Translations under genes and position numbers: made by a program
Notes under the pieces: generated by a model
What the model was told of the DNA's origin: nothing
What the model saw: the letters and a program-made list of their open reading frames with translations, nothing else
Database searches by the model: none
Part shown: in pieces, positions 28,592-48,860 of the stretch
How positions within the stretch are numbered: the first letter of the stretch is position 1
Layout of the letters: each line of letters opens with the position of its first letter
Assembly: GCF_030384885.1 (NCBI RefSeq)
Contig: NZ_CP128613.1
Direction: 5' to 3' (one strand)
Length of the DNA stretch: 64,000 nt
Source: Escherichia coli
GTDB lineage: Bacteria > Pseudomonadota > Gammaproteobacteria > Enterobacterales > Enterobacteriaceae

Positions 28592-28677
28592 CCATTTTGC
28601 TGTCACTACCAAAGTAAAAGGGGCTATGATTTCACGTAACCCCTTGATTTATTTGATGAGTTGGCGGTGTCTGAACT
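28592..28677 (-). repeat. Diverged ancient copy of ssrA 3' end + ssrA terminator region (old att remnant)
   Basis: ccattttgctgtcactaccaaagtaaaaggggctatgatttcacgtaaccccttgatttatttgatgagttggcggtgtctgaac aligns with 48434-48520 (terminator plus first ~23 nt of ssrA 3' end). Confidence 0.55.
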
Positions 28678-28749
28678 GGTGCTGTAATTGGTTGAAATAT
28701 TTCATCTAATGTCTGGTTCAACTTTCCTTAGCTGCCTGAAAGTTTTTTT

Positions 28750-29090
28750 GATATTACCCATCAATAATAGGGTTACGGTGTACCACGCCTGACTGATGAA
28801 CTGCGTGCTCAGAGTTACCACTTCAGCGCATAACCGTGGCAGCAGGCCCGGACAGAACAAACGGCTCAGGACATTATCGGTAGGGGACGTACTGGTAGTC
28901 TGTAAACTAAACCGACTGGGGCGCAGTATGCGGCATCTTGCCGTGCTGTTGGAGGAGCTGTGAGAACGTGGTATTAACTTTCGTGCTCTGACTCTACCAA
29001 TATTTGCCCAACAATCGGTGGACGAAAGCTGTAAAAGTAAAACAATCTGCAATCTCAATATTATTGCGTGATTTTTATGTGAGCAGAAGA
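28750..29090 (+). pseudogene. pinH: Serine recombinase (Hin/Pin/resolvase family) pseudogene with in-frame stops and frameshifts (pinH-like)
   Basis: Translation fragments IGLRCTTPD (cf. IGYVRVSTxDQ) and EEL*ERGINFRALT (cf. ELRERGINFRSLTD) interrupted by stops. Confidence 0.55.
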
Positions 29091-29410
29091 TATTCATCAG
29101 AAACGATTATGTAAATCATTTTATTTTTCCGACGGCTTCAATGTCGAAAGAAAAGAATACGCCCGTATTTCCTGAATAGATTGACTTTTTTATCCAACCA
29201 CACTTCAGCTCACTGTGTTTAAAAAATGCCTCTTTCTTATGCGGAATATCATCATTTCATCATGATGTCTTTGATGAGCGGTGAACACAATACACTTGCG
29301 CTGTCTCTTCAGGATGAATCCCCTTGGTCTGGTGCCTGTGGGCTGATGTTGCAGCAGAGCTAAGGTTGCTTAAACGCTACTCAGTATTCACTTTTCAGAG
29401 GATGAAATTT

Positions 29411-32400
29411 ATGAACAGGACCAGTCCCTATTATTTTCGCCGCTCAGTACTTTCCTTATTGATATCTGCTTTGATATATGCCCCACCAGGGATGGCAGCT
29501 TTTACTTCAACCGTTATTGGCGTGGTAAACGATGAGACTGTAGATGGCGTCCAAAGAGTGGATGAACGAGGTACAACAAATAACACTCATATTATCAACC
29601 ACGGTTATCAGGATGTTTATGGCGGGGTATCTAATGGAAGTATTATTGAATCTGGTGGATATCAAGATGTAGGAGGTCATTACAATTTTGTGGGGCAGGC
29701 TAATAATACAACCATTAACGGGGGCAGACAGACAATTCATGACGGGGGTATTTCCACAGGTACGATAATCGAGAGTGGCAATCAGGACGTTTATACGGGT
29801 GGTATCAGCAATGGAACGACAATTAAGGGGGGTAATTCACACATAAGTGGGGGGACTGCGAATGGAACAATCATTGATGGTGGCAGCCAACGAGTAACAA
29901 CTCAGGGGCATGTCGACAGTACAACAATAAATAAGTCTGGCTCTCAGGACATCACGCAAGGAAGTCTGGCAACGAACACAACCATAAATGGTGGTCGACA
30001 GTATGTTGAACAGAGCACAGTAGAAACAACCACCATTAAAAATGGCGGTGAGCAAAGAGTATATGAAAACCATGCGCTGGACACGACGATTGAAGGTGGA
30101 ACTCAGTCTTTGAATAATAAGTCAACGGCAAAATATACTCAGATCTATTCTGGAGGTACTCAAATTGTTGATTACACCAGCACCTCGGATGTTATTGAAA
30201 TTTATTCCGGTGGCGTGCTTGATGTTAGTGGTGGTACGGCAACAAATGTTACCCAGCACGATGGTGCAATTTTAAAAACAAACACTAACGGTACGACGGT
30301 GAGCGGTACGAATAGTGAAGGGGCATTCTCTATTCACAATAACGTGGCAGACAATGTGTTGCTGGAAAACGGTGGTCATTTAGACGTATATGGTTCGGCA
30401 AACAAGACAATTATTAAAGATAACGGAACAATGTCAGTTTTAGCGAATGCTAAAGCTGATGCGACCCGAATAGATAATGGCGGCGTTATGGATGTTGCCG
30501 GAAACGCGACAAATACCATAATTAATGGTGGCACACAGAATATAAATAATCATGGTATTGCCACGGGAACCAATATCAACAGCGGAACACAAAATATCAA
30601 GAGCGGCGGGAAAGCTGACACGACAAATATCTCCTCCGGGAGCCGGCAGGTTGTTGAGAAAGATGGTACGGCAACTGGCAGCAATATTAGTGCCGGAGGC
30701 TCGCTGATTGTCTATACCGGTGGTATCGCACATGGGGTTAACCAGGAGACGGGTAGTGCTTTAGTTGCCAACACGGGCGCAGGGACTGATATTGAAGGAT
30801 ACAACAAGCTCTCTCACTTCACTATTACCGGAGGGGAGGCTAATTATGTTGTGCTGGAAAATACCGGCGAACTGACGGTAGTGGCTAAAACCACGGCGAA
30901 AAATACTACCGTTGATGCTGGCGGTAAGCTGATTGTCCAGAAGGAGGCTAAAACAGATAGCACCAGACTTAATAATGGTGGCGTTCTGGAGGTTCAGGAC
31001 GGTGGTGAGGCTAAGCATGTTGAGCAACAATCCGGCGGCGCATTAATTGCTTCCACGACTTCCGGAACACTTATCGAAGGAACTAACAGTTATGGTGATG
31101 CTTTCTACATCAGGAATTCAGAAGCTAAAAATGTAGTGCTGGAAAACGCTGGCTCATTAACAGTCGTTACTGGTTCCCGGGCAGTTGATACGATTATTAA
31201 TGCCAACGGCAAAATGGATGTTTATGGAAAAGATGTTGGCACTGTACTCAATAGTGCGGGCACCCAAACAATATATGCCAGTGCCACTTCTGATAAAGCA
31301 AATATCAAAGGTGGCAAGCAAACGGTATATGGTTTAGCCACTGAGGCAAATATCGAAAGTGGTGAACAAATTGTTGATGGTGGGTCAACAGATAAAACGC
31401 ACCTCAAAGGCGGCACGCAAACCGTTCAGAATTATGGTAAGGCGATCAATACCGATATCGTCTCTGGCCTACAACAAATTATGGCAAACGGGACAACGGA
31501 AGGTTCCATTATTAATGGCGGTTCACAGGTAGTTAATGAGGGCGGTCTGGCTGAAAACTCGGTACTTAATGACGGCGGCACACTCGATGTGCGGGAGAAA
31601 GGCAGCGCTACGGGGATACAGCAGAGTAGCCAGGGCGCGCTGGTGGCAACCACCAGGGCGACGCGGGTCACAGGGACACGCGCTGATGGCGTCGCGTTCA
31701 GCATCGAGCAGGATGCGGCGAACAATATCCTGCTGGCAAATGGCGGCGTGTTAACCGTGGAGTCAGACACCACTTCCGCCAAAACACAGGTCAATGCGGG
31801 CGGACGGGAGATCGTCAAAACAAAAGCCACTGCGACTGGCACGATGCTTACCGGCGGTGAACAAATCGTCGAGGGTGTGGCGAATGAGACAACGATTAAC
31901 GACGGCGGAATACAAACAGTTTCGGCTAACGGTGAGGCAGTAAAAACAACGATTAATGAAGGCGGTACGCTGACAGTCAACGATAATGGCAAAGCGACAG
32001 ATATCATCCAGAACAGCGGTGCCGCTCTCCAGACGAGCACGGCTAACGGTATTGAAATCAGCGGTACTCACCAGTACGGCACCTTTTCCATTGCCGGAAA
32101 TTTAGCGACCAATGCGTTGCTGGAAAATGGCGGTAATTTATTGGTATTAGCAGGTACCGAAGCTCGCGATTCCACGGTTGGCAACGGTGGGGCAATGCAA
32201 AACCTGGGTCAGGACTTCGCCACAAAGGTTAATTCCGGTGGGCAATATACCCTTGGTCGGTCAAAAGATGAGTTTCAGGCTCTGGCCCGGGCAGAAGATC
32301 TACAGGTCGCTGGCGGGACGGCAATCGTCTACGCAGGTACGCTGGCGGATGCATCGGTCAGTGGCGCGACAGGAAGCCTGTCGTTAATGACGCCACGGGA

Positions 32401-33979
32401 TAATGTTACGCCAGTTAAACTTGAAGGGGTGGTCCGGATTACCGATAGCGCGACATTAACTATCGGAAATGGCGTCGATACGACGCTTGCCGACCTGACG
32501 GCTGCCAGCCGGGGCAGTGTCTGGCTTAACAGCAATAATTCCTGTGCAGGCACCAGCAACTGCGAATATAGAGTAAACAGTTTGCTCCTCAACGACGGTG
32601 ATGTTTATTTATCAGCACAAACAGCAGCGCCTGCCACAACTAACGGTATCTACAATACGCTGACCACCAGTGAACTTTCCGGCAGCGGTAATTTCTACCT
32701 GCATACCAACGTTGCAGGCTCCCGGGGCGATCAACTGGTCGTCAACAACAACGCCACTGGCAATTTTAAAATCTTTGTTCAGGATACCGGCGTCAGCCCT
32801 CAGTCTGACGACGCGATGACGCTGGTGAAAACAGGGGGAGGGGATGCTTCGTTTACGCTGGGTAATACCGGCGGTTTCGTTGATCTTGGGACCTATGAGT
32901 ATGTCCTGAAAAGCGACGGCAACAGCAACTGGAACCTGACCAATGATGTCAAACCCAACCCGGATCCCAACCCAAATCCGAAACCGGATCCAAAACCAGA
33001 CCCAAAACCGGATCCGAAACCAGACCCGACTCCCGATCCAACGCCGACACCCGTCCCGGAGAAACGCATCACGCCTTCTACGGCAGCCGTACTCAATATG
33101 GCAGCAACATTACCGTTGGTCTTTGATGCTGAGCTAAACAGTATTCGCGAGCGGTTGAACATAATGAAAGCGAGTCCACACAACAATAATGTCTGGGGGA
33201 CGACGTATAACACCCGTAATAATGTCACCACCGATGCGGGTGCCGGGTTTGAGCAGACGCTGACCGGAATGACGGTGGGGATCGATAGCCGTAATGATAT
33301 TCCTGAGGGGATTGCGACGCTGGGCGCTTTTATGGGTTATTCCCATTCACATATCGGTTTTGATCGTGGAGGACATGGCAGTGTGGGCAGTTATTCTCTG
33401 GGGGGCTATGTCAGCTGGGAACATGAAAGTGGTTTCTATCTGGACGGTATCGTGAAGCTGAACCGCTTTGAAAGTAACGTAGCCGGTAAAATGAGCAGCG
33501 GTGGAGCCGCCAACGGCAGTTATCGCAGCAACGGGCTGGGTGGTCATCTTGAAACCGGGATGCGATTTACCGATGGTAACTGGAACCTGACGCCGTATGC
33601 ATCGTTAACGGGGTTCACCGCTGATAACCCCGAATATCATTTATCCAATGGTATGGAATCGAAATCAGTCGATACCCGCAGTATATATCGTGAACTGGGC
33701 GCAACGCTGAGTTACAACATGCGTCTGGGGAACGGCATGGAAGTTGAGCCGTGGCTGAAGGCGGCTGTGCGCAAAGAATTTGTCGATGATAACCGGGTGA
33801 AAGTGAATAATGACGGTAATTTTGTCAATGATTTGTCGGGCAGACGTGGAATATACCAGGCAGGTATTAAAGCCTCATTCAGCAGTTCGTTAAGCGGGCA
33901 TCTCGGGGTAGGGTATAGCAATGGTGCTGGTTTGGAATCCCCGTGGAACGCGGTGGCTGGTGTGAACTGGTCGTTCTGA
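29411..33979 (+). CDS. ypjA: AIDA-I/Ag43-type autotransporter adhesin (beta-helix passenger with ~19-aa repeats, Pro-rich linker, C-terminal beta-barrel translocator)
   Basis: Start MNRTSPYYFRRSVLSLLISALIYAPPGMAAF (signal peptide; SD aggatg upstream; alt ATG 29402); dozens of GGxQxVxxGGxAxxTxI repeats; C-terminal ...NAVAGVNWSF barrel; position next to ssrA island end as ypjA in K-12. Confidence 0.8.
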   Translation: MNRTSPYYFRRSVLSLLISALIYAPPGMAAFTSTVIGVVNDETVDGVQRVDERGTTNNTHIINHGYQDVYGGVSNGSIIESGGYQDVGGHYNFVGQANNTTINGGRQTIHDGGISTGTIIESGNQDVYTGGISNGTTIKGGNSHISGGTANGTIIDGGSQRVTTQGHVDSTTINKSGSQDITQGSLATNTTINGGRQYVEQSTVETTTIKNGGEQRVYENHALDTTIEGGTQSLNNKSTAKYTQIYSGGTQIVDYTSTSDVIEIYSGGVLDVSGGTATNVTQHDGAILKTNTNGTTVSGTNSEGAFSIHNNVADNVLLENGGHLDVYGSANKTIIKDNGTMSVLANAKADATRIDNGGVMDVAGNATNTIINGGTQNINNHGIATGTNINSGTQNIKSGGKADTTNISSGSRQVVEKDGTATGSNISAGGSLIVYTGGIAHGVNQETGSALVANTGAGTDIEGYNKLSHFTITGGEANYVVLENTGELTVVAKTTAKNTTVDAGGKLIVQKEAKTDSTRLNNGGVLEVQDGGEAKHVEQQSGGALIASTTSGTLIEGTNSYGDAFYIRNSEAKNVVLENAGSLTVVTGSRAVDTIINANGKMDVYGKDVGTVLNSAGTQTIYASATSDKANIKGGKQTVYGLATEANIESGEQIVDGGSTDKTHLKGGTQTVQNYGKAINTDIVSGLQQIMANGTTEGSIINGGSQVVNEGGLAENSVLNDGGTLDVREKGSATGIQQSSQGALVATTRATRVTGTRADGVAFSIEQDAANNILLANGGVLTVESDTTSAKTQVNAGGREIVKTKATATGTMLTGGEQIVEGVANETTINDGGIQTVSANGEAVKTTINEGGTLTVNDNGKATDIIQNSGAALQTSTANGIEISGTHQYGTFSIAGNLATNALLENGGNLLVLAGTEARDSTVGNGGAMQNLGQDFATKVNSGGQYTLGRSKDEFQALARAEDLQVAGGTAIVYAGTLADASVSGATGSLSLMTPRDNVTPVKLEGVVRITDSATLTIGNGVDTTLADLTAASRGSVWLNSNNSCAGTSNCEYRVNSLLLNDGDVYLSAQTAAPATTNGIYNTLTTSELSGSGNFYLHTNVAGSRGDQLVVNNNATGNFKIFVQDTGVSPQSDDAMTLVKTGGGDASFTLGNTGGFVDLGTYEYVLKSDGNSNWNLTNDVKPNPDPNPNPKPDPKPDPKPDPKPDPTPDPTPTPVPEKRITPSTAAVLNMAATLPLVFDAELNSIRERLNIMKASPHNNNVWGTTYNTRNNVTTDAGAGFEQTLTGMTVGIDSRNDIPEGIATLGAFMGYSHSHIGFDRGGHGSVGSYSLGGYVSWEHESGFYLDGIVKLNRFESNVAGKMSSGGAANGSYRSNGLGGHLETGMRFTDGNWNLTPYASLTGFTADNPEYHLSNGMESKSVDTRSIYRELGATLSYNMRLGNGMEVEPWLKAAVRKEFVDDNRVKVNNDGNFVNDLSGRRGIYQAGIKASFSSSLSGHLGVGYSNGAGLESPWNAVAGVNWSF
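32950..33058 (+). repeat. Hexanucleotide-based Pro-Asp/Pro-Lys tandem repeat (PNPDPNPNPKPDPKPDPKPDPKPDPTPDPTPTPVP linker)
   Basis: ccggatccaaaaccagacccaaaaccggatccgaaaccagacccg... directly visible. Confidence 0.6.
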
Positions 33980-34139
33980 CCATCAACGAAAAAGCCCACA
34001 TCTGTGGGCTTTCATATCACCAGGAGCCGCGGCTCCTTTGCGTATCCTTTTATGTCTCCTCACCGTCTGGTCGGTGTCTTGCTGAGACTTCTAACTTCCT
34101 GTTTTTGTTGGTGTTGTCCTTACACCGTCCAATCATGAT

Positions 34140-34183
34140 TGGTGGGCTGGCGGGAGTTGAACCCGCGTCCGAAATTCCTACAT
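34140..34183 (-). repeat. Partial direct repeat of ssrA 3' end (att site copy), one base shorter than the intact end
   Basis: tggtgggctggcgggagttgaacccgcgtccgaaattcctacat vs intact tggtggagctggcgggagttgaacccgcgtccgaaattcctacat at 48498. Confidence 0.75.
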
Positions 34184-34346
34184 ACTAATAATATATCTTT
34201 AAAATCAAAATATTCTATTATTTATCAATGTATTATGTTTATGTGGTGTTAAGGGGTTTATATGGGTTTTAGTTCTCTGCCGCCAAAATGCCGCCAAAAA
34301 AATTGAATGGTAAAACGCCAGTTCGTTGAACTGGCGAGATCTTGTC

Positions 34347-35114
34347 TTATTGTTTTATTATCTTAACGTGCGCCGTTCCTCCATTGACTTTTTCGAAATC
34401 TTGGAACAAGGCAGGGGCATCTTGAGTTACAATATCGTAAAGTTTTTCTGAAACTGTTCTCATTTCATAGTCACCCTGTATTGCTCCTCTCATTTCGAAG
34501 AAGTGTCGAATTGCGCGAGCATTTGCTGTGACGATTATTTTTGTCTCGGTTGCATTAGGCAATATAGAGCGAGAAGCGCTTCTTAAGGCCCGCATTTTTT
34601 CTTTTTTGTTCTCATACGATTGGTTTTCACGGATTTTTTTCAAGGATTGCTTATAAAAATCCAGACTACTTTCAATATGTTGGCACCATGACTTAAACAA
34701 TTCTGGGTCATTTTTTACTTCTATAGGGGCTACGAATTCAGCATCGGATTCATCATGATACTGTTGGGATAACTGGCTATATGAAAAACCAGCTCTATGC
34801 CGAACTAGCTGGTGTGTAAATGCACGAGATACCCCAGTAATTAAAAAGGTCCAGTTCAAATGTTCTAAGACACTTTCATGCCCTTGAATAATTAAATTGT
34901 TGATATATTGACTTGTAGTCCGTGGAGACTGCTTATCCTCTCCAAAAGACATATAACATAGCCTGCCAGCGGCCTCTACCAGAAGCTCAGCTTCGGTCGC
35001 CTGCCCTTTGCGAACCCATTGCAATGATGATGTGTTTAAAAAATCATCAAAAACATTACTTTCAAATGAAGGGTGTGATATGCATTTTACTGATAAATCA
35101 GAGATTTTTATCAT
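34347..35114 (-). CDS. thyX: Flavin-dependent thymidylate synthase ThyX
   Basis: 255 aa with ThyX signature RHRAGFSYSQLSQQY (RHRx7-8S...RY) and C-terminal ARAIRHFFEMR; AT-rich. Confidence 0.75.
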   Translation of the reverse strand: MIKISDLSVKCISHPSFESNVFDDFLNTSSLQWVRKGQATEAELLVEAAGRLCYMSFGEDKQSPRTTSQYINNLIIQGHESVLEHLNWTFLITGVSRAFTHQLVRHRAGFSYSQLSQQYHDESDAEFVAPIEVKNDPELFKSWCQHIESSLDFYKQSLKKIRENQSYENKKEKMRALRSASRSILPNATETKIIVTANARAIRHFFEMRGAIQGDYEMRTVSEKLYDIVTQDAPALFQDFEKVNGGTAHVKIIKQ

Positions 35115-35116
35115 TT

Positions 35117-35902
35117 TTACTCCCGTATAGCTTTTGGGGTGCTTACTTTAGCATCAACCTTTGGTTCGTTTGATTTAGCATTTTTTAGTAATTCAACGGT
35201 GCTTTTTAGGCTATTTATTTCATTTTGTTGAACTTTTATTGTTAATTCAAGATCTTTTGTACTACTGACATTACTGGATACTATTTGAAATAAGAAAGGA
35301 ATTGCTAGGGTTATCAACGTTAGCATTAAGGCTGCTATCGCAATTATAAAGCCAGTTTTTTTCGCAATGATTTTATTGATTTCTTTCGGAAGTCGTTTAT
35401 CAAGTCCTGCAAAATCCTTTCCCATTCTAGAAAGTTGATCATCATCCAATTTATTTACGATTTTTCCTTGGTAACCTTTAGTCGGTATTATTGTTTTAAA
35501 TAATAACATTCGGGCTACTGCTGAATTTTGTGTCAATGAGAATGGTTCTTTTGACATATTTACAAGATATATTGAAATTATGCCATTATATCCAGGGTCA
35601 ATATGCCCTGGATTCGTCATGATAATTCCATTTTTTGATAGTGTGTTTCTTGGAAATATTACACCAGCTAAATTTTTTGCAAGTTGGAATTTTTCATTTA
35701 ACTCTAATATTACAGTTTCCCCTGGCATCAGGATATGGTTGTTACGTGTTTTTTTATTGTCTTGACAGTCTGGTATATGTATTGTTTTTACAGAGAGATC
35801 AATGCTTGCAGATTGAACTTTAAATGTTCCATTTAATACCGTTAATGGATCAAAAATGTTGCCTCGCTGAATTTCATCATTGATTTCTATTTCAGACAGC
35901 AT
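35117..35902 (-). CDS. dCTP deaminase/dUTPase-fold (Dcd-like) domain protein with C-terminal TM helix and coiled-coil tail; catalytic Glu apparently replaced
   Basis: Aligns to E. coli Dcd: ASIDLSV / LMPGETVILEL / PRNTLSKNG / IDPGYNGIISIYLVN (Dcd has IDPGWSGCIVLEFYN); residues 185-210 hydrophobic (GFIIAIAALMLTLITLAIPFLF). Confidence 0.6.
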   Translation of the reverse strand: MLSEIEINDEIQRGNIFDPLTVLNGTFKVQSASIDLSVKTIHIPDCQDNKKTRNNHILMPGETVILELNEKFQLAKNLAGVIFPRNTLSKNGIIMTNPGHIDPGYNGIISIYLVNMSKEPFSLTQNSAVARMLLFKTIIPTKGYQGKIVNKLDDDQLSRMGKDFAGLDKRLPKEINKIIAKKTGFIIAIAALMLTLITLAIPFLFQIVSSNVSSTKDLELTIKVQQNEINSLKSTVELLKNAKSNEPKVDAKVSTPKAIRE

Positions 35903-35928
35903 ATCAAAATCCTATATTTGTAAAGTTA

Positions 35929-36942
35929 TTATAAATTAGCCAGAGGGTTTTTTATTACTGCATCTTCAAGATGCTCTGGGGAAAAATGTGCATAAATCAT
36001 AGTCATTTTTATATCAGAGTGGCCTAAAATATCTCGTAAAACCAAAATATTACCACCATTCATCATAAAATGGCTGGCGAATGTATGGCGCAGAACGTGA
36101 GTGCATTGGCCCTCTGGTAACTCAATGTCAGCTCGCTTTACTGCTCGTTCAAAGGCTTTTCTGCAAGGAGTGAATAACTTCCCTCTGTTCTTAGGGAGTT
36201 CGTCATACAGATCCTGAGATATCGGCACGGTACGGTTTTTCTTGCCCTTAGTCTTGGTATAGGTGATCCGGTATTTCGATAACTGATGGCCCTGCAGATT
36301 TTCGGCTTCACTCCAGCGCGCGCCGGTGGCCAGGCATATTTTTGTAATTAAAAGTAGACTGGGGCTTTGAGAATCAGCACAGGCATCCAGCAGACGTTTA
36401 ATTTCTTCCGGGGTCAGGAACGACAGTTCACCCTCAGCAATTTTAAATGTTGGCAGCCCGGCAAGCGGATTGGGGGCTGACCAGTGGCCCAACTTTTTCA
36501 GTGTGCCAAAAACAGATGATAGGTTGCGCTGTTCAAGGTTTACAGTGCGGGGCTTAACGGGCGACATAAGCGTGCCCTCTTCATTTCGCACTTCACCTTT
36601 TAGCCGCGCTTCTCGGTATTTAGTAAAATCACCGGCTGTCAGCTCTGAGGCGATGGGATCGCCTAGACCATTACAGATAATTCTAAGTTTCGCCATGAGG
36701 CGCTTGGGGTCTGCGAGTGTTTGACCATACAGGGAATACCACTGCTCAATTAATTCTGATAGGTGTCGCCGATCTTCCTTTTCCCCCAGCCATGGCTTTT
36801 TGTTCACTTCTTCCATTGTGAAGCTTTCAAAAGCAATGGCTTCGCCTTTCGTAGCAAATTGCTTACGCACGCGCTTGCCATTGCGTCCATGGGGATAGCA
36901 CTCGCACAACCATTTACCGTTTGGCTGTTTTCTGACAGTCAT
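35929..36942 (-). CDS. int: Tyrosine integrase, P2 family
   Basis: 337 aa; N-terminus MTVRKQPNGKWLCECYPHGRNGKRVRKQFATKGEAIAFE resembles P2 Int MAIKKLDDGRYEVDIRPTGRNGKRIRRKF...; C-terminal HxxR...Y catalytic region (HVLRHTFASH...MIYAH). Confidence 0.85.
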   Translation of the reverse strand: MTVRKQPNGKWLCECYPHGRNGKRVRKQFATKGEAIAFESFTMEEVNKKPWLGEKEDRRHLSELIEQWYSLYGQTLADPKRLMAKLRIICNGLGDPIASELTAGDFTKYREARLKGEVRNEEGTLMSPVKPRTVNLEQRNLSSVFGTLKKLGHWSAPNPLAGLPTFKIAEGELSFLTPEEIKRLLDACADSQSPSLLLITKICLATGARWSEAENLQGHQLSKYRITYTKTKGKKNRTVPISQDLYDELPKNRGKLFTPCRKAFERAVKRADIELPEGQCTHVLRHTFASHFMMNGGNILVLRDILGHSDIKMTMIYAHFSPEHLEDAVIKNPLANL

Positions 36943-36944
36943 GT

Positions 36945-37577
36945 TTAGATACTCTTTATTACTTTGACTGCACGCCCAATAACTTCCACATCATCAGTAG
37001 AGCACTCGAAAGACGCTTCATCTTGATTTACTACAATCTTATTGCCGGGAATCCGCATGATTTTTGCAACAATAATCATTCCATCAATATTGATAAGCCA
37101 GAATCCATTGCTGACCTGTTTAATTGATTTATCGATGAGATAACAATTAGTAGGGGTTTCTAAGAACATCAATTCTTCATAATCTGCAGGTAATATGCTG
37201 TGGTCTAGGAAAATCTCTTCATCAATACTGAGTTGTCCATTCTCCAGGGTTCCTTTAGGAATAGCTGGAGTTATGAGTTTGGATAACGGTTTAATTGCTT
37301 GTTTGTTCTCATTATGAGAACTTTTCTCAGGCTCAGCTCCTCCTTTCATGCTTCCCTGTCCTGTAGCTAACCAAAGCAACGAAACACCGGTTTCTAGTGC
37401 GCACTGAATTATCCAGTCAGCAGGAAAGCTGTCACGTAACACTCTGTTTGCCATAGTGCTTTTTGAGACATTCAGGTGCTCGCTTAATGCCTGCTTAGTT
37501 GTGAATCCATAAGCCTCAAGCAGCCTTTCAATAGCTGCCTTACCTCCCGTATCGGAACCCATTCTGATGTTTAACAT
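36945..37577 (-). CDS. CI-type immunity repressor (HTH N-domain + C-terminal oligomerisation domain, 186-like)
   Basis: 210 aa, HTH KQALSEHLNVSKSTMANRVLRD; located between int and divergent apl/cII as in coliphage 186. Confidence 0.65.
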   Translation of the reverse strand: MLNIRMGSDTGGKAAIERLLEAYGFTTKQALSEHLNVSKSTMANRVLRDSFPADWIIQCALETGVSLLWLATGQGSMKGGAEPEKSSHNENKQAIKPLSKLITPAIPKGTLENGQLSIDEEIFLDHSILPADYEELMFLETPTNCYLIDKSIKQVSNGFWLINIDGMIIVAKIMRIPGNKIVVNQDEASFECSTDDVEVIGRAVKVIKSI

Positions 37578-37698
37578 TGGTGATCTCCATTTGACAATCT
37601 TGAATCAAGATCGTAATGTCTTCATGTCTCTTGATGTGAGAGTTTAAGAGACGGGCTAAAACGAACTAACACGCACACAAAGTAAGAGATACTGCACT
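37578..37698. promoter_or_regulatory. Divergent lysogenic/lytic promoter-operator region between cI and apl
   Basis: Position by analogy with 186 pR/pL switch; inferred. Confidence 0.3.
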
Positions 37699-38483: not shown

Positions 38484-38490
38484 GGTGCTT

Positions 38491-39845: not shown

Positions 39846-40072
39846 TGGCTGATGCAATGGATCTCGTACAGCAGCGCGTTGAAGAAGAACGCCAACGCCA
39901 TATCCGTGCTGCCCGTGCCAAAACGCCGGGCGTGTCCCGCGTGCTTTGCATTGAGTGTGAAGCGCCAATTCCGCCAGCACGCCGCCGTGCCATTCCGGGT
40001 GTGCAGCTTTGCATTACCTGTCAGGAAATCGCAGAGCTGAAAGGCAAACATTACAACGGAGGTGCTGTATGA
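39845..40072 (+). CDS. TraR/DksA-family C4 zinc-finger protein
   Basis: 75 aa with CIECEAPIP...CITCQ four-Cys finger. Confidence 0.7.
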   Translation: MADAMDLVQQRVEEERQRHIRAARAKTPGVSRVLCIECEAPIPPARRRAIPGVQLCITCQEIAELKGKHYNGGAV

Positions 40073-40926
40073 GCACCATCCTGAAATGGGCGGGAAATAA
40101 AACTGCCATAATGTCCGAACTGAAAAAACATCTTCCTGCTGGCCCGCGACTGGTTGAACCTTTCGCGGGTTCCTGTGCTGTGATGATGGAGACGGATTAT
40201 CCCAGCTATCTGGTTGCGGATATTAATCCTGATTTAATCAACCTCTATAAAAAGGTTGCCGCTGATTGTGAATCGTTTATATCTCGCGCCAGAGTTTTAT
40301 TTGAGATCGCAAACAGGGAGGTGGCTTATTACAACATAAGGCAGGAGTTTAATTACTCAACTGAAATTACTGATTTCATGAAAGCGGTATATTTCCTGTA
40401 TCTCAATCGTCACGGTTACCGTGGTTTATGTCGCTATAACAAGAGCGGGCATTTCAACATTCCCTACGGTAATTATAAAAATCCGTATTTCCCTGAAAAA
40501 GAAATTCGCGCATTTGCAGAAAAGGCCCAGCGAGCAACGTTTATCTGCGCCAGCTTTGATGAAACGCTGGCGATGTTGAAGGCGGGGGATGTGGTGTATT
40601 GCGATCCGCCGTATGACGGTACGTTTTCCGGCTATCACACTGACGGCTTCACTGAAGATGACCAGTATCACCTGGCATCTGTTCTTGAACATCGGTCATC
40701 AGAAGGACATCCGGTCATTGTTTCTAACAGTGACACATCCCTGATCCGTTCGCTGTATCGCAATTTTACTCACCACTACATCAAGGCAAAACGCAGCATC
40801 GGTGTGGCAGCTGGCGAGGGTAAATCAGCAACAGAAATCATTGCTGTTTCCGGGCCGCGCTGCTGGGTGGGATTTGATTATTCGCGTGGCGTGGATAGTT
40901 CTGCCGTGTACGGAGTACGTGCATGA
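40069..40926 (+). CDS. dam: N6-adenine DNA methyltransferase (Dam/D12 class)
   Basis: [11 protein letters not shown]... N-terminal SAM-binding FxGxG-like region and DPPY motif ([10 protein letters not shown]); start overlaps traR-like stop (ATGA), stop overlaps repA start. Confidence 0.8.
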
Positions 40927-43337
40927 GTCATGCCGATATGAACAACTGCTGCGGCTTTAACGAAGCTGCCGCATCGTTCTCATGGAACAGCCCGAAAAAG
41001 GCCATTAACCCTTATCTGGACCCGGCGGAAGTTGCGCCGGTTTCTGCGCTTTCAAACCTGATCACTCTGTACGCTACTGATAACGAGCAGGAACAACTGC
41101 GCCGCGAGGCACTGAGTGATCAGGTCTGGGAGCGTTATTTCTTTAATGAATCCCGTGATCCTGTCCAACGCGAAATGGAGCAGGATAAGCTCATTAGCCG
41201 GGCAAAGATGGCGCATGAGCAGCAGCGTTTTAATCCAGACATGGTCATTCTGACTGACGTCAACGCCCAGCCTTCCCATATCAGCAAGCCGCTGATGCAA
41301 CGTATTGAATATTTCAGCAGCCTGGGCAGGCCAAAGGCTTATTCCCGCTATTTGCGTGAGACGATTAAGCCATGTCTGGAACGACTGGAGCATGTACGCG
41401 ACAGCCAGCTATCTGCATCTTTTCGTTTTATGGCAAGCCATGAAGGGCTGGACGGTCTGCTGATCCTGCCTGAAATGAGTCAGGATCAGGTGAAACGCCT
41501 GTCTACCCTTGTCGCTGCGCATATGAGCATGTGTCTTGATGCCGCTTGTGGTGATTTGTACGCCTCCGATGATGTTAAGCCAGAAGAAATCCGCAAGACA
41601 TGGGAAAAGGTGGCTGCAGAAACCCTGCGACTGGATGTCATACCGCCTGCGTTTGAGCAACTCCGCCGGAAAAGAAACCGCCGCAAACCTGTGCCTTATG
41701 AACTCATTCCGGGTTCGCTGGCGCGTATGCTGTGCGCCGACTGGTGGTATCGGAAATTATGGAAGATACGTTGCGAATGGCGGGAAGAGCAGTTGCGTGC
41801 TGTCTGCCTGGTCAGCAAAAAAGCATCTCCCTATGTCAGCTATGAAGCCGTGATGCATAAACGTGAGCAGCGCCGTAAGTCGCTGGAGTTTTTCCGTTCT
41901 CATGAACTGGTGAACGAAGACGGCGACACGCTGAACATGGAGGATGTGGTAAACACCAGCAGCAGCAACCCGGCGCATCGCCGCAACGAGATGATGGCCT
42001 GTGTTAAAGGCCTAGAGCTTATCGCGGAAATGCGTGGTGACTGCGCCGTTTTCTACACCATCACCTGTCCGTCACGTTTCCATTCCACGCTAAATAACGG
42101 CAGGCCAAACCCGACCTGGACCAACGCGACAGTAAGACAAAGCAGCGATTATCTGGTCGGCATGTTTGCTGCATTTCGTAAGGCTATGCACAAAGCCGGG
42201 TTGCGCTGGTATGGCGTGCGGGTGGCTGAGCCGCATCATGACGGCACAGTTCACTGGCACCTGTTGTGTTTCATGCGCAAAAAAGACCGCCGCGCCATTA
42301 CTGCATTGTTGCGTAAGTTTGCCATCCGTGAAGACCGCGAGGAGCTGGGCAATAACACGGGGCCACGCTTTAAGTCTGAGCTGATAAACCCGCGCAAAGG
42401 AACGCCGACAAGCTACATTGCGAAATATATCAGTAAGAATATTGACGGGCGTGGTCTGGCTGGCGAGATCAGTAAGGAAACGGGTAAATCCCTGCGTGAT
42501 AACGCTGAATACGTTAATGCCTGGGCGTCTCTGCATCGTGTTCAGCAATTCCGCTTCTTTGGCATTCCGGGGCGTCAGGCTTACCGTGAACTGCGATTGC
42601 TGGCTGGTCAGGCGGCAAGGCAACAGGGTGACAAAAAAGCAGGTGCGCCGGTACTGGATAACCCGCGCCTTGATGCCATCCTGGCTGCTGCTGATGCTGG
42701 TTGTTTTGCCTCCTACATCATGAAGCAGGGCGGCGTACTGGTTCCCCGCAAATATCACCTCATCAGAACCGCTTATGAAATCAACGAAGAGCCGACCGCC
42801 TATGGCGATCACGGTATTCGTATTTATGGCATCTGGTCACCCATTGCAGAGGGCAAGATCTGCACTCATGCAGTGAAGTGGAAAATGGTTCGTAAGGCCG
42901 TTGACGTTCAGGAGGCGGCAGCCGACCAGGGCGCTTGCGCCCCTTGGACTCGTGGCAATAACTGTCCCCTTGCTGAAAATTTGAACCAACAGGAGAAAGA
43001 TAAATCAGCTGATGGGGACACCAGAACGGACATTACCCGCATGGATGACAAGGAGTTGCACGATTACCTGCACAGTATGAGCAAAAAAGAGCGCCGGGAA
43101 CTGGCTGCAAGGTTACGCCAGGTGAAACCGAAACGGCGTAAAGACTACAAACAGCGAATTACAGACCATCAGCGACAGCAGCTCGTCTATGAACTGAAGT
43201 CCAGGGGATTTGATGGCAGTGAGAAAGAAGTCGATTTGCTCCTTCGCGGTGGCAGTATTCCGTCAGGAGCAGGCCTGCGTATTTTCTATCGGAACCAGCG
43301 TCTGAAGGAAGATGATAAGTGGCGGAACCTGTATTAA
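40923..43337 (+). CDS. P2 gpA-like rolling-circle replication initiation endonuclease
   Basis: 804 aa; HUH-type motif [10 protein letters not shown] and double-tyrosine motif YIAKYISK as in P2 A/phiX174 A proteins. Confidence 0.85.
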
Positions 43338-43489
43338 TTACGCGGGTTAACAATTCGTGCCCTTAATAATACCAGGCATATCAGGCTGATGAATGTAAAA
43401 AAACGTTTTACATCAGTAAGATTATTATATACTGTAAATATAAACAGTGGTTATCTATACAGTATTGCTTTGGTGTCATAGGAGGAAAG

Positions 43490-43678
43490 ATGCAGGACTA
43501 TTTTTTGGAGTCTTTGAAGCTCCAGCGCATTGATTTTTTTCTTAAGCTTGTAGCGGCTAGTGAGTGTAGTGATGAAGAGAAGGGGCTGGCTCTGCAGTGG
43601 GTTTCTGAACTGACAGATGAACTCATGGCAAAAATCAGAACCCACGAATACAACCGCTCAATGGATGTCATCAGCTGA
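43490..43678 (+). CDS. Hypothetical 62-aa protein
   Basis: Small ORF preceding dinI-like gene. Confidence 0.3.
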   Translation: MQDYFLESLKLQRIDFFLKLVAASECSDEEKGLALQWVSELTDELMAKIRTHEYNRSMDVIS

Positions 43679-43688
43679 GGTGACTTTT

Positions 43689-43922
43689 ATGCGCATTGAA
43701 ATAATGATCGATAAAGAGCAGAAGATTAGCCAGTCTACCCTGGACGCCCTTGAATCCGAGCTTTACCGCAATCTGCGCCCCCTGTATCCCAAAACGGTAA
43801 TCCGTATCCGTAAAGGTAGCTCTAACGGTGTGGAACTGACCGGACTGCAACTGGACGAAGAAAGAAAACAAGTGATGAAAATTATGCAGAAGGTGTGGGA
43901 AGACGACAGCTGGCTGCATTGA
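43689..43922 (+). CDS. DinI-family DNA-damage-inducible protein
   Basis: MRIEIMIDKEQKISQSTLDALESELYRNL...WEDDSWLH parallels DinI MRIEVTIAK...LSRR...WESADDW. Confidence 0.7.
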   Translation: MRIEIMIDKEQKISQSTLDALESELYRNLRPLYPKTVIRIRKGSSNGVELTGLQLDEERKQVMKIMQKVWEDDSWLH

Positions 43923-44035
43923 TTTTGTCAATAGACGCTTGTTTTTACTAATCAAAAAGGGTTACATATGAGTGAGAGGCGATGTCAATCAGATATCGCC
44001 TTGTTTTTTGTCAAGAAAAGAATAATAGGCTAAAA

Positions 44036-44713
44036 ATGAAAATTAATAATGTAGCGTTACCAATATCTCTTGCTGTAATCCTAACTGGTTGCGTGCCACA
44101 TGCTTCTAACCGAAATATCACTGCTATTGAAGTGGTGAAGCCTGCTATTGGGCAAAGTGCTACCGCCTACATGGGCGATCCCATTATCACATCTGCTACT
44201 GGATTTAAAACGGACGTACTAGAACTTGGTGCGGCTAATGGTGCATTGTCTTCTATCGCTGCTGGTACATATTGCAGTGAGGGGAATGGAATTTACCGCA
44301 ATTATCATAACCCTCAAGCTGTTGCGTTAAAAAATCTCTATGGGCAAATCGGTAACTATGTTGATTATGTTAGTTACGATGCTGCAAAAAATGAGATATC
44401 ACCGCCAAATGGTACTTCTTATACTGCATCAGAAATTTCTATCAAACGTGTTCCTGATGGGCTGTGTCGAGTTAGTAACTCATTGGTTAAGACTATCGAA
44501 TACAATGGAAATGCAGGCGGTGTAATGAAGTTCACCTATCGTGAATTTGCAAACGATATGGCTCGTGCAGCATTTACAACAGATTTTTCTGTAGATTCTA
44601 AGGGAAGTGACGTTATCGCTTACAAAGGTGCCAAGTTCAAAGTGAACAAGGCTGATAACTCGTCTATTTCTTATACAATTATTTCTGGCTTTGACAAGGC
44701 TGTCACGTTCTAG
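44036..44713 (+). CDS. Lipoprotein of unknown function (prophage hotspot cargo)
   Basis: MKINNVALPISLAVILTGC lipobox (LTGC); ~33% GC; start alternative 43982. Confidence 0.6.
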   Translation: MKINNVALPISLAVILTGCVPHASNRNITAIEVVKPAIGQSATAYMGDPIITSATGFKTDVLELGAANGALSSIAAGTYCSEGNGIYRNYHNPQAVALKNLYGQIGNYVDYVSYDAAKNEISPPNGTSYTASEISIKRVPDGLCRVSNSLVKTIEYNGNAGGVMKFTYREFANDMARAAFTTDFSVDSKGSDVIAYKGAKFKVNKADNSSISYTIISGFDKAVTF

Positions 44714-45038
44714 GTTTCACGCTTACTGAGTATGTTACGATTTTGCACATTCTGCATAAACGCGCATGTCTATGCTGCATGAGATCGCATGATCGTTTGA
44801 GGATCTTTTGTGTTAAGGCCCGCCAGTTCTGGCGGGCTTTTGCGTAGATCATGCAGGTGCATGAAAACCACTACATAAAGCGGGCAGGCGTGGCGGGGAT
44901 ACGAGCGCGCGTTATGACAAATAGATGATTAGCCTGATTTATTCACAGCTGTATAAATGATCACCTTGTAATTAGGTAAGTAATGTCTTCTATTATCATT
45001 GATTTGATAGGATTAATCTGTTTTTTGAGGATTAGAGG

Positions 45039-47375
45039 ATGATTGAAGAGGTAGTTATTGACAAAGTAGGCTCATATAATGGCCCTACTCAGCTTTTACA
45101 TGGGCTTTCTAAATTTAACTATTTATATGGAGCTAATGGTGCAGGTAAAACAACTATAAGTAAAATTATTAATGACCCTGAACAATATCCAACATGTCCG
45201 ATTAAATGGAAAAATAATATATCTTTAATAAGCTACGTATATAATAAAGATTTTGTTGAAAGAAATTTTAGTCAAGATAAAATTAAAGGTGTATTTACCC
45301 TTGGTAGCGATCTTAAGGAGGATGAAGAGAAATTAATATCTCTTGAAGAAGAAAAAAATAAGCTAATAGAATCTATTATAGCAAAGGAAAAGCTAATAGA
45401 TGGTGGTGATAATATATTAGGCGTTGTTAAACAAATCGAAGACCATGAAAAATCTTTTAAAGATTCATGTTGGAAGCAAAAAGTAAAACATGATAATGTG
45501 TTCTCAAAGGCTTTTGAGGGATTAAGGAATAGTAGTGAAAAATTTAAAGCTAGAGTGTTGGCTGAGTATGAAAATAACACATCAGAAGTTTGCTCAATAG
45601 CAGAGCTAATTGAGAAAGCAAAAATTGTTTTTTCTACTGAATTGACATCACATGTATCAATTACAATTCCATCCTTCAATGGGATAGATGATATTTTGAG
45701 TAGGGAGATTTGGAGTGAGCGTATTCTAGGGAAAAAAGACGTTAGTGTTTCAGACTTAATTACAATGCTCAATAACAGTGATTGGGTTAAGGAAGGTTTA
45801 ACATATTTCAGTAAATCTAATCCCAAGTGCCCATTCTGCCAGCAGGATGTAAATGATAATATATTTGATAATCTATCATCATATTTTGATAAAACATATG
45901 AGTTAAAAAAAAGAGAAATCGATGCATTGGTTTTACAATATGAACATCAACTTAATAATATCTTGCAGGCGATAGATGATATAAGGGCGATTAAATCTCC
46001 ATTCATAAATTATGAAGTGTTTGAGGATAAGGCTAAGATAGTATTATCTGAATTAAACAAGAATTTTGAATTGGCAAAAAATAAACGCAATTTTTTAAGT
46101 GAATCAGTTCATTTTAGTGACTTAAGTGAAGTTGTTGATGATTTTATTTCTTTTTTGAATGATTCAAATCTATTGATAGATAATAATAACAAAATACACA
46201 GTAATAGAAAGGTAGAGGCTAGTAATCTTTCTAATCAGATATGGGCATATATCGTAAAGGTGGAGTTAAAGTCTGAAATAACTTCTTACCGTAGCGAATC
46301 TGATAAATTTAATAGGAAGTTACAAGGGCTTAAATCTGGGTTAGAGGAAGACAAAAAGAAGTTAATGTTAAATGCTTCGGCTATTGAGGCAATTGAGTCT
46401 AATAAAACCAGTACTCTTCCAACTATTACAAAAATTAACAAGATTCTGGATTCTTATGGCTTCAAAAATTTTTACTTAAAACCCTCCGAAGATAAAAAGC
46501 ATTATATGATAGTGAGAGATAGTGGAGATAATGCTCGTACAACCCTTAGCGAGGGAGAAAAGACATTTATCACTTTTTTGTATTTTTATAGCCTTGTTAG
46601 AGGGAGTGATAATGCATCAGGTGTTTTAGATGATCGTGTTGTAGTATTTGATGATCCAATTTCAAGTTTAGATAGTGATATTCTGTTTATTGTAAGTTCG
46701 TTGATTAAAGATTTAATGGAGGATGTTCGTAAGGATGAAGGAAATATTAAGCAAATTATATTCCTTACACATAATATTTATTTTCATAAAGAGTTGACTT
46801 TTAATACTAAAAGATCCGGTAATCAAGCAATGAAAGAGGAGACTTTTTGGATTGTAAGGAAAAAAGGGAAGGTCTCATATCTTGAAAAGTGCGAATCAAA
46901 CCCAATAAAAACGTCTTATGATTTGCTCTGGTGCGAATTGAGAAGAACAGATATTAATAATAATACTATACAAAATACAATGCGAAGGATTTTGGAGAAT
47001 TACTTTAAGATATTAGGTGGGATGGATATTAGGAAGCTTGAATGTCATTTTTATGGTGATGAAAAAATCATATTTAAATCTTTAGTGTCATGGATTAATG
47101 ATGGTTCTCATTTTGCAGGTGATGATCTTTATATGAATTTAGATACGGAGTCTGTGCAAAAATATTTAATTGTTTTTCAGAAGATATTTGAGTGTAGTGA
47201 GCATACTGCCCATTACAAAATGATGATGGGTGAGTTTTATAGACCGTTAAATGAGTCACTTCATCTACAAGATGAGTTTGATATTGATGATAGTGCGAAT
47301 GATGAGTATGCTTCGTCAAAAATTGAGATAGAAGATGGAATAAACACATCTCTACATAGTAATACATATTTGTAA
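45039..47375 (+). CDS. RloC/PrrC-like ABC-ATPase with coiled-coil/CxxC hook insertion and C-terminal putative anticodon-nuclease domain (candidate anti-phage/abortive-infection protein)
   Basis: Walker A GANGAGKTT; signature LSEGEK; Walker B/D-loop VVVFDDPISSLD; H-loop FLTHN; ~450-aa K/E-rich insert containing KCPFCQ; C-terminal MRRILENYF...WINDGSHF (R...Nx3H); ~30% GC. Confidence 0.65.
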   Translation: MIEEVVIDKVGSYNGPTQLLHGLSKFNYLYGANGAGKTTISKIINDPEQYPTCPIKWKNNISLISYVYNKDFVERNFSQDKIKGVFTLGSDLKEDEEKLISLEEEKNKLIESIIAKEKLIDGGDNILGVVKQIEDHEKSFKDSCWKQKVKHDNVFSKAFEGLRNSSEKFKARVLAEYENNTSEVCSIAELIEKAKIVFSTELTSHVSITIPSFNGIDDILSREIWSERILGKKDVSVSDLITMLNNSDWVKEGLTYFSKSNPKCPFCQQDVNDNIFDNLSSYFDKTYELKKREIDALVLQYEHQLNNILQAIDDIRAIKSPFINYEVFEDKAKIVLSELNKNFELAKNKRNFLSESVHFSDLSEVVDDFISFLNDSNLLIDNNNKIHSNRKVEASNLSNQIWAYIVKVELKSEITSYRSESDKFNRKLQGLKSGLEEDKKKLMLNASAIEAIESNKTSTLPTITKINKILDSYGFKNFYLKPSEDKKHYMIVRDSGDNARTTLSEGEKTFITFLYFYSLVRGSDNASGVLDDRVVVFDDPISSLDSDILFIVSSLIKDLMEDVRKDEGNIKQIIFLTHNIYFHKELTFNTKRSGNQAMKEETFWIVRKKGKVSYLEKCESNPIKTSYDLLWCELRRTDINNNTIQNTMRRILENYFKILGGMDIRKLECHFYGDEKIIFKSLVSWINDGSHFAGDDLYMNLDTESVQKYLIVFQKIFECSEHTAHYKMMMGEFYRPLNESLHLQDEFDIDDSANDEYASSKIEIEDGINTSLHSNTYL

Positions 47376-47386
47376 TTTTATTGCAA

Positions 47387-47416
47387 TTGCCAGTAGCAAC
47401 AATACGGTACTGGCAA
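47387..47416. terminator. Hairpin between convergent RloC-like gene and portal fragment (possible bidirectional terminator)
   Basis: ttgccagta-gcaacaatacgg-tactggcaa 9-bp stem flanked by T/A runs. Confidence 0.35.
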
Positions 47417-47424
47417 CTAATATT

Positions 47425-47823
47425 TTAGTTAAGCTCATATGGAGAAAATTCTATAAGTTTCTCCCCGAGCCATGCGTTTATTTCCATAAATCGTTTTTGC
47501 AAAGGAATTAATTCATTTATCACAAAAACCTTACTAGCCTTCTCCACATCCCCAAACCCCCCAACATTATTAGGCATTATCCCCATCATTTGCGGCGGCA
47601 CACGGTGTGCCGCCATCATGTCGTCCCGGCTCACGTTCTTGATATTCAGAAACTCATCCTTCGCCGCGACTTCTGACAACGGGATAATCTGAAGCCCGTC
47701 CTTTTTGCCGTTAGGAGAGTACATAAACAGGTTGCGGAAGTTGCCTGGCCCTTTGGCACTTTTCATTGCGTTGCGGAGGTTGTTCACATCTTCTTGGTTC
47801 TGTGCGGCATCGGTCATGTACAT
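47425..47823 (-). pseudogene. Phage portal-like (P2 gpQ-like) C-terminal fragment; upstream part disrupted
   Basis: 132-aa ORF ...RVPPQMMGIMPNNVGGFGDVEK... oriented toward the hotspot as Q is relative to old/cos in P2; coding continues upstream only with frame breaks. Confidence 0.4.
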
Positions 47824-48153
47824 GATGAAACCTGCATGGCTGCCGTTGATGTAATACTTACGGCGGAACAGTGTGGCGGACTCGTTGAGCAGGGCTGACG
47901 GGATGGCAGAGAGATAACCTGGCAGGCCGTAGATCTCCTGGTTGATGTCCGGTTCCGCCCTTAATCATCTCAACCATGCGTTACAGCTCGATCCCCGCTG
48001 TGGCGTGAAAAAAGACAAACAGCAGCTGGAGCGCAGACTGCGCAATGACAGCCGCTGACAGAACGTGCCCCCGCGCACGGGCGGCACGGGGTGGCGAAAG
48101 GCACAGCCACATCAAAACCCCGTCCACCGCCCTTTATTTCAGGAGAAAGCAGC

Positions 48154-48357
48154 ATGAAGTTTGTTGCGCCAGAACAGGCACCGGAACAGGCGGAAATCAT
48201 CAGAAACACGCCGTTCTGGCCTGATGTGGACCTGTCGGAGTTTCGCAGTGTCATGCGCACTGACGGCACGGTGACGCAGCCGCGTTTAAAGCAGGTTGCG
48301 CTGTCGGCAATTTCGGAGGTCAACGCACCGATACGACCATTTGCATTGATGTAAACA
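48154..48357 (+). pseudogene. Short phage-derived ORF fragment adjacent to ssrA
   Basis: MKFVAPEQAPEQAEIIRNTPFWPDVDLSEFRSVMRTDGTVTQPRLKQ...; GC-rich unlike neighbouring cargo; likely truncated. Confidence 0.3.
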
Positions 48358-48446
48358 AAGTGAAGTTCTTCCATGTGAAACCTCTTTGCATGATTTCAAG
48401 ATGGCGACAGGCAAGATGGACGCAAAAGTCTGTCGCCATTTTGCCG

Positions 48447-48497
48447 CCACTACCAAAGAAAAAGGGGCTACGCTTTCACGTAACCCCTTGATTTATT
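48447..48497 (-). terminator. ssrA rho-independent terminator
   Basis: On minus strand: ggggttacgtgaaagcgtagcccc hairpin followed by TTTTT immediately after the CCA end. Confidence 0.6.
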
Positions 48498-48860
48498 TGG
48501 TGGAGCTGGCGGGAGTTGAACCCGCGTCCGAAATTCCTACATCCTCGGTACTACATGCTTAGTCAGTCTTTACATTCGCTTGCCAGCTGCGGACGGACAC
48601 GCCACTAACAAACTAGCCTGATTAAGTTTTAACGCTTCAACCCCAGGCAGGGCTTCCACGCGATCTCTTTTGGGTTTGACCTCTCTTGATCCCCGTCCTA
48701 AGAGCGGAGGCTAGGGAGAGAGGGCTCTAAGCAGGTTATTAAGCTGCTAAAGCGTAGTTTTCGTCGTTTGCGACTATTTTTTGCGGCTTTTTACGAGGCC
48801 AACCGCCCCTCGGCATGCACCTTGGGTTTCGCAAATCCCGTCGAATCCAGAATCAGCCCC
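48498..48860 (-). ncRNA. ssrA: tmRNA (transfer-messenger RNA, 363 nt)
   Basis: Reverse complement reads GGGGCTGATTCTGGATTCGACGGG...ANDENYALAA tag reading frame...GGTTCAACTCCCGCCAGCTCCACCA, matching E. coli ssrA end to end. Confidence 0.95.

Follow-up and report, generated by a model that had tools for sequence, protein, structure and literature searches.

Integration at the tmRNA gene

Tyrosine integrases recombine the phage attachment site (attP) with the 3′ ends of transfer RNA (tRNA) and transfer-messenger RNA (tmRNA) genes, the gene being restored from phage sequence. Williams is said to have described, in 2003, the use of different sublocations of the 3′ end of the tmRNA gene (ssrA) by different integrase subfamilies, each insertion reportedly displacing the previous 3′ fragment, with the generation of a series of partial copies. 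The literature describes the gene for tmRNA as a hotspot of integration for several integrase subfamilies, often occupied by tandem elements. We describe here the ssrA locus of a 64,000-nucleotide (nt) stretch of Escherichia coli DNA (contig NZ_CP128613.1; below, the window), in which a P2-like prophage remnant lies between ypjA and ssrA and three copies of the ssrA 3′ end are found. Judged against such tandem arrays, the window is not fundamentally different and provides one more arrangement. Nested attachment (att) relics at ssrA are already well established, and nothing in this locus is categorically new; the value of the analysis lies mostly in correct annotation, phage-derived and chromosomal sequence being separated at a classic hotspot.

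Two described systems provide the comparison. CP4-57 of E. coli K-12, with its attL in ssrA and its attR beside psaA, next to ypjA, occupies the same site as the window element and has the same palindrome and the same TGGTGG-GCTGGCGG flank without T357. Excision of CP4-57 deletes T357 (U357 in the RNA), the partner of G3 in the G:U pair conferring alanine identity, and inactivates the tmRNA (PMC10107115). The same excision outcome, an inactive ΔU357 tmRNA, is expected for the window element, and the third of the copies described below is also present in K-12. However, the window element is a P2-like remnant; its core identity extends over 38-45 nt, against about 14 nt for CP4-57, and the terminator that it brings is a different one. 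The Fels-2/RE-2010/Cartapus group (Peduoviridae inserted at ssrA in Salmonella, E. coli and Klebsiella) has the same attP arms, terminator, 45-nt core and TGCCGCCA repeats as the window prophage, but the latter lacks virion, lysis and late-control genes and carries different cargo at both variable spots.

Correspondence between the ssrA 3′ end and a free-phage attP

Comparison with annotated E. coli genomes identified the window as the locus glaH–ygaQ–ileY–ypjCB–pinH–ypjA–[insert]–ssrA–smpB–ratA, in reversed orientation relative to K-12. A functional, full-length ssrA was detected at 48498-48860 (minus strand) with ARAGORN and the Rfam model RF00023 (295.8 bits). This was the only region of the window to qualify in the tmRNA covariance-model test, the middle and third copies being fragments containing no more than 44 nt of ssrA. 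The last 45 nt of the gene (48498-48542, minus strand) were identified as the ssrA-proximal copy of the att core. The sequence beyond them (48375-48497, minus strand) corresponds to a phage P′ arm, now acting as the ssrA 3′ flank, with a terminator hairpin at about 48461-48490 and the repeats TGTCGCCA/TGCCGCCA at 48431-48449.

In the virion genome of Escherichia phage Cartapus, the attP is contiguous and consists of the start of the gp32-like gene, TGTCGCCAtttTGCCGCCA, the terminator hairpin, a 45-nt stretch with the same sequence as the ssrA 3′ end and an AT-rich arm on the side of the integrase gene (int). A 161-nt query from the window (48400-48560) matched the left half of this attP over 143 nt (48400-48542) at 99.3% identity, and the core at the other end of the prophage (34146-34183) was followed by an int-side arm of the Cartapus design. 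When joined at the core, the inner arms of the window prophage are equivalent to the attP of the free phage. The annotation of the related phage RE-2010 gives terminal repeats of 84 bp, and the terminator lies within them. Because the Cartapus attP carries the terminator, the 45-nt ssrA end and the int-side arm contiguously, the terminator beside ssrA can be assigned to phage DNA, and the comparison indicates that the present 3′ end of ssrA and its terminator were both supplied by a phage attP. This strain has a single tmRNA gene, and both the functional 3′ end of that gene and its terminator come from a prophage remnant.

The hairpin itself, attributed in the earlier note to the ssrA terminator, is present in the intact copy, with a 12-bp stem, a predicted energy of -26.6 kcal/mol (z -3.6) and a UUUUUCUUU tail, features characteristic of an intrinsic (rho-independent) terminator; it is, however, part of the phage attP rather than the original terminator of ssrA. 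In the int-side P arm of the prophage (34184-34346), the repeats take the form TGCCGCCA-N3-TGCCGCCA (34278-34296); Cartapus, RE-2010 and a provirus from IMG/VR (L027) have them at the same distance. Tandem repeats of the form TG[CT]CGCCA-N3-TG[CT]CGCCA were found in both arms of all five Fels-2-like attPs examined, and are presumed, by analogy with the arm sites of P2, 186 and lambda, to be arm-type sites for the integrase (Int).

The three copies of the ssrA 3′ end

The intact copy (48434-48542) combines the ssrA 3′ end with a strong hairpin followed by a U-tract. The middle copy (34140-34183, minus strand), which constitutes the distal att junction of the prophage, lies 160 nt past the stop codon of ypjA (33979). 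It had been described as a perfect 44-nt repeat, but identity is exact over 38 nt only (34146-34183, matching 48505-48542); these are joined to a TGGTGG, and alignment of the 44 nt with 45 nt of ssrA places a single-base gap between the TGGTGG and the 38-nt block, the base equivalent to T357/U357 being absent. The third copy (28592-28677) contains 64 nt that are 92% identical to 48436-48499 (blastn E value of 4e-20), followed by a degenerate segment of 22-23 nt. Its terminator hairpin is weakened (-16.8 kcal/mol) and gave no call in the consensus terminator scan. As the earlier note had it, this copy lies beside the pinH pseudogene, a serine recombinase relic recognized by homology (28832-29071), and the gene encoding the 478-amino-acid (aa) YpjCB.

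The similarity of the three copies exceeds chance by far: no matches to the 38-nt block were expected in shuffled sequences, nor were any expected for the 39-nt terminator pattern, which was found in the third copy with two mismatches. A query consisting of the synthetic "excised" junction was used against 5426 complete E. coli genomes (the set to which all genome counts below refer), and ypjA was found to abut ssrA directly in 2525 of them. The sequence of this empty site is CCAATCATGATTGGTGGAGCTGGCGGG in both of the genomes fetched (L004 and L005), T357 being present, and it is identical to the window flanks joined at the core. Ordinary duplication or chance similarity, unrelated to site-specific integration, is vanishingly improbable as the origin of the copies: nothing was found in its favour, the 14-nt palindrome considered below being the only feature that, taken alone, occurs at chance frequency, whereas the shuffles yielded no match to either pattern, and both the empty site and the free-phage attP fit the joined flanks and arms of the window. 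The Cartapus attP and the empty-site genomes refute this explanation.

A further point against duplication or chance is that every copy lies exactly where conserved chromosome meets an element arm. It is highly likely that they are nested att junctions of elements with tyrosine recombinases, each targeting the ssrA 3′ end and each bringing a replacement 3′ end. The proposal that the copies record successive integrations into this 3′ end, with the P2-like element as the most recent arrival, is upheld.

The palindrome CCAATCATGATTGG (34129-34142) does overlap the edge of the middle copy, as reported. It belongs to the conserved spacer between ypjA and ssrA in E. coli, being present in K-12, in F1005 and in the two empty-site strains fetched, in both of which it overlaps the true ssrA 3′ end. 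The suggestion that it might be part of the attP of related phages was rejected, as it is missing from the Cartapus attP and retained in K-12 and in the two prophage-free E. coli strains. It was also dismissed as a structural or statistical oddity: no significant fold was predicted for 34129-34142 (z -0.87), and the window contains five perfect 14-nt palindromes, for 3.4 expected in shuffled sequences.

The missing T357 beside ypjA

The attR of CP4-57 in K-12, beside the 14-nt psaA pseudogene annotation, reads TGGTGG-GCTGGCGG, lacks T357 and has the same flank as the window. The middle copy of the window is equivalent to this ΔT357 scar fused to the long Fels-2-type core. A junction of the ΔT357 type beside ypjA (31-nt query) was found in 625 genomes, all 12 of those sampled being unannotated relics, and the T357-containing junction (32-nt query) was found in 2292, where it mostly corresponded to a real ssrA. 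Like the window, 87 genomes had ΔT357 joined to the long core (42 at ≥99% identity), and ΔT357 in an ssrA at the empty site was seen in only one or two, the one identified being a laboratory strain. The other junction variants beside ypjA were all changed at this same spot. The base equivalent to T357 was affected by an A to G change in strain 1409; in NCTC9038, which carries a third type of element, an A was deleted; and the junctions of P4-like satellites had deletions of 4-5 nt abutting GCTGGCGG. By contrast, the base was retained at Fels-2-like junctions formed on the arms of other elements. In the scars beside ypjA, whether ΔT357 (the 625 genomes), the A to G change of strain 1409 or the 4-5 nt deletions of P4-like satellites, the base removed or altered is always the one forming the alanine-identity pair G3:U70.

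A P4/CP4-57-type element was probably once present beside ypjA in this lineage and then lost, because the left edge of the middle copy, with its palindrome, its TGGTGG and its missing T357, is chromosomal DNA that predates the phage and carries the scar typical of such junctions. One consideration weighs against this reading: given the crossover that the published excision product implies, T357 would be expected to persist in the relic after a simple integration at a wild-type site. The same consideration, according to which CP4-57-type integration alone would not remove T357, equally favours an explanation in which the base was lost by random mutation after integration and bears no trace of an earlier element, as does the status of the relic, which is neither expressed nor constrained. 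Such a mutation is nevertheless rather improbable. The same base is missing from the third copy, which is independent, in the window allele as well as in that of K-12, and from the junction of a third type of element in another E. coli locus (L022); the same position is affected in strain 1409 and by the deletions abutting GCTGGCGG at P4-like satellite junctions; and the base is retained where Fels-2-like junctions have formed on arms belonging to other elements.

Loss of the remnant from the window is predicted, by analogy with CP4-57 in K-12, to leave an ssrA without U357 and an inactive tmRNA, and hence to disable trans-translation. The scar in the relic could conceivably act as a lock-in device, in that loss of the element would yield an inactive tmRNA, so the site would have to stay occupied, or be re-occupied, by an element with a good 3′ end. 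We consider this quite unlikely, but it would fit the near-absence of ΔT357 empty sites and, if true, could help to explain the fixation of the ancient pinH–ypjA segment, the distal junction of which has the same scar. The association of alanine-identity-base scars with site occupancy across hundreds of genomes provides a modest lead as to how hotspots remain occupied.

Several loci illustrate the variety of occupants at this site. Tandem arrangements of a P4-like satellite and a P2-like prophage were observed in two other E. coli loci (L023 and L024), and a P2-like prophage together with an element containing a truncated integrase and an insertion sequence was observed in L022. In strain 1409, a 177-nt partial "ssrA" is annotated by PGAP at the distal junction.

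Two probable arms in the third copy

K-12 has the third copy, between pinH and ypjB, and so do most of the other E. coli loci fetched; it occurs as two alleles. Its left part (28585-28653, minus strand) resembles a relic of a Fels-2-like P′ arm. Homology to this type of arm extends 25 nt past the terminator, into the position of the tandem repeats, where the decayed repeats TGCATCCA (28587-28594) and TGCTGTCA (28598-28605) are found; the distance from the second repeat to the ssrA end in this decayed array (TGCATCCAtttTGCTGTCA) is 49 nt, as in the intact copy. The right part (28654-28729) consists of an att core relic, TGATGA-GTTGGCGG, without the base equivalent to T357, leading into an arm of the CP4-57 type. 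Over 76 ungapped nt, 28654-28729 is 71% identical to the CP4-57 attR arm of K-12, and for the 53 nt that follow the core, identity to CP4-57 in register is 68%, a value not reached at any of the other 21977 offsets. The right side of the third copy therefore reads, on alignment, as an arm of a CP4-57-type element and not as decayed ssrA. The description of this copy as diverged, with terminator-like sequence, consequently stands (92% identity over 64 nt), but the "degenerate ssrA end" attributed to it is this element arm.

The earlier note placed the original ssrA end here, and the simplest form of that idea is that the third copy is the original 3′ end with its native terminator, and that an old ypjA/pinH island displaced it on a single occasion, with two integrations only. 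A very similar terminator does occur in non-phage host DNA at the ssrA-core junctions of six IMG/VR proviruses, and RE-2010 has one in its left terminal repeat, so a terminator of this type can be a resident host feature, and the region to the left of the third copy has no phage homology. However, the host flank common to these six different proviruses (probably from Salmonella) diverges at the repeat position, precisely where the third copy continues to follow the phage arm for about 25 nt past the terminator, with identical spacing of the TGCCGCCA repeats. The int-side arm, made up of phage DNA only, has the same repeats; the base equivalent to T357 is missing, and the right side resembles a CP4-57-type arm rather than decayed ssrA; and the scar in the middle copy implies at least one further element. 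A native end displaced in a single event is therefore unlikely.

Because the decayed arm repeats occupy the homologous position with the homologous spacing, it is somewhat more plausible that the terminator part of the third copy is an arm left by a Fels-2-like prophage of even greater age than that it is the native end of ssrA. Four points count against this composite reading of the third copy. The phage origin of its terminator is deduced from additional homology over about 25 nt and from two 8-mers that have decayed. Transfer may possibly have occurred in the opposite direction, with a phage arm captured from an Escherichia-like chromosome. No phage homology was detected to the left of 28585, either between the left open reading frame (ORF) and the phage gp32-like protein or between YpjCB and all phage records. 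Finally, although the third copy has the structure of a CP4-57/P4-type distal junction, TGGTGG(A)GCTGGCGG followed by an element arm, neither an integrase ORF, including one of the P4 family, nor any other CP4-57-type gene was found in 28678-34139, the assignment being made from the similarity of about 76 nt of arm.

Searches in other species provided further information about the distribution of these flanks. In a scan of genomes sampled at one per species, the terminator pattern was matched only in E. coli and Shigella representatives and in one contaminant metagenome-assembled genome. Searches for ssrA in relatives via SmpB homologues led to Salmonella-like contigs that either contained bapA between smpB and ssrA or ended too early, and to another P2-like prophage (L014). 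An Enterobacterales contig (L020, at about 5867-6080) has an island-free smpB-ssrA-cstA arrangement, in which ssrA is flanked by a hairpin and a terminator of the form GCCCGCA...GCGGGCTTTTTT. This flank is not of the terminator type sought, and is nearly identical to the ssrA-proximal CP4-57 arm of K-12. Such matches suggest that each family of elements, those with CP4-57-type attPs and those with Fels-2-type attPs, may carry a mimic of the ssrA flank of some host. As for allelic variation, the core of the third copy (28654-28670) differs from that of K-12 (reverse strand) at 4 of 17 positions (GTTGGCGGTGTCTGAAC versus GCTGGCAGTGACTGAAT), the next 53 nt being 100% identical; the window allele of this core is shared with strains 2012C-4502 and SCU-172.

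Proposed order of events

From the repeats, arms, empty site, free-phage attP and deletions observed, we infer the following order. In the oldest step, a Fels-2-like prophage would have left a terminator-bearing arm at ssrA, to judge from the decayed arm repeats, and this arm would later have been displaced. An ancient CP4-57-type element would then have integrated, with the third copy as its distal junction, and its remains, including pinH and ypjA, would have become fixed in E. coli. The old segment between the third and middle copies (28730-34139, plus strand) would accordingly correspond to the remnant of a CP4-57-type element or array. The arrangement predicted for a genome without this segment, a ypjCB-terminator-ssrA junction, was found in none of the 5426 genomes, on which basis the segment is considered fixed in the species; the portrayal of ypjA/pinH as a variable island is not borne out. 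Displacement of the original ssrA end into the third copy is also disfavoured, the terminator part carrying decayed versions of the phage-specific TGCCGCCA repeats, for which an older Fels-2-like arm is likelier.

A later P4/CP4-57-type element may then have been present beside ypjA, either lost before integration of the phage or forming a tandem array with it. The most recent arrival would be a phage of the Fels-2/RE-2010 type, the junctions of which are the ssrA-proximal copy (48498-48542, with the terminator) and the middle copy (34140-34183). The prophage has subsequently been reduced to 14.3 kb by two internal deletions. Should it excise, a crossover anywhere within the 38-nt exact block would be expected to produce an ssrA without U357, and thus without the alanine-identity pair G3:U70, as for CP4-57.

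The resident prophage

The segment between the two cores (34184-48497) is a defective 14.3-kb prophage remnant of the Fels-2/RE-2010 type (P2-like Peduoviridae). Its genes are ordered as follows: cargo consisting of thyX and a dCTP deaminase (DCD)-like gene, int, cI, a cox-like gene, cII, dam, gpA, dinI, a PDC-S06 ATPase gene, a portal fragment, the tail of gpM, a gpL fragment and the start of the gp32-like gene. In the early region, identity to Salmonella phage RE-2010 (Felsduovirus) is 95-97%; relative to this phage, two deletions, at RE-2010 coordinates of about 12277-17150 and 17520-33980, were detected. At the right end, all that is left is the portal fragment, the final 100 nt of gpM and the beginnings of gpL (173 nt) and of the gp32-like gene (49 nt). 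The genes deleted are those for the capsid, tail and lysis functions, together with D and ogr, and no complete set of P2-type virion and lysis genes was found in 34184-48497.

The integrase gene (35929-36942, minus strand) lies beside one att junction and encodes an intact tyrosine integrase of 337 aa with the Pfam domains Int_N and Phage_integrase. This protein is 94% identical, over its full length, to the integrase of RE-2010, and has only family-level similarity to IntA of CP4-57. The remnant is probably still excisable, because it retains an intact int and an intact cox-like gene, and neither the two cores nor the arm repeats are damaged.

Between the att junction and int, the cargo (34347-35902, minus strand) encodes a ThyX-type thymidylate synthase (255 aa) and a protein resembling dCTP deaminases and dUTPases (261 aa). 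The genes found at this spot in relatives include those for an anti-phage dCTP deaminase and for a RES-domain protein. Neither of the two window proteins yielded a match with the PADLOC models; together they could act on the nucleotide pool in defence or counter-defence. After gpA and dinI, the second variable spot of P2-like phages (43982-47375, plus strand) contains a 243-aa ORF without a family match and a gene for a 778-aa AAA_13 ATPase, which matched the PADLOC candidate defence family PDC-S06 (E value of 1.5e-266).

Flanking chromosomal genes

The core genes of the window are about 97.6-98.5% identical to those of E. coli strains, and identity is about 94-95% on the ypjA side. The ypjA autotransporter ORF (29324-33979, plus strand), which is associated with a bidirectional terminator, can be aligned with ypjA of K-12 from position 29411. 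To the left of the third copy, ypjCB (27020-28456, plus strand; DUF5507 and DUF5508) is an intact fusion of 478 codons, the corresponding region of K-12 being split into ypjC and ypjB. The tRNA gene at 26188-26263 was labelled Met (anticodon CAT) by ARAGORN, but its position and 97% identity identify it as ileY, encoding tRNA-Ile2 (CAU, lysidine-modified). A 750-aa ORF (23374-25626) is open in the window; the same place is occupied by the ygaQ pseudogene in K-12 and by a gene for a protein with an alpha-amylase C-terminal domain in other strains.

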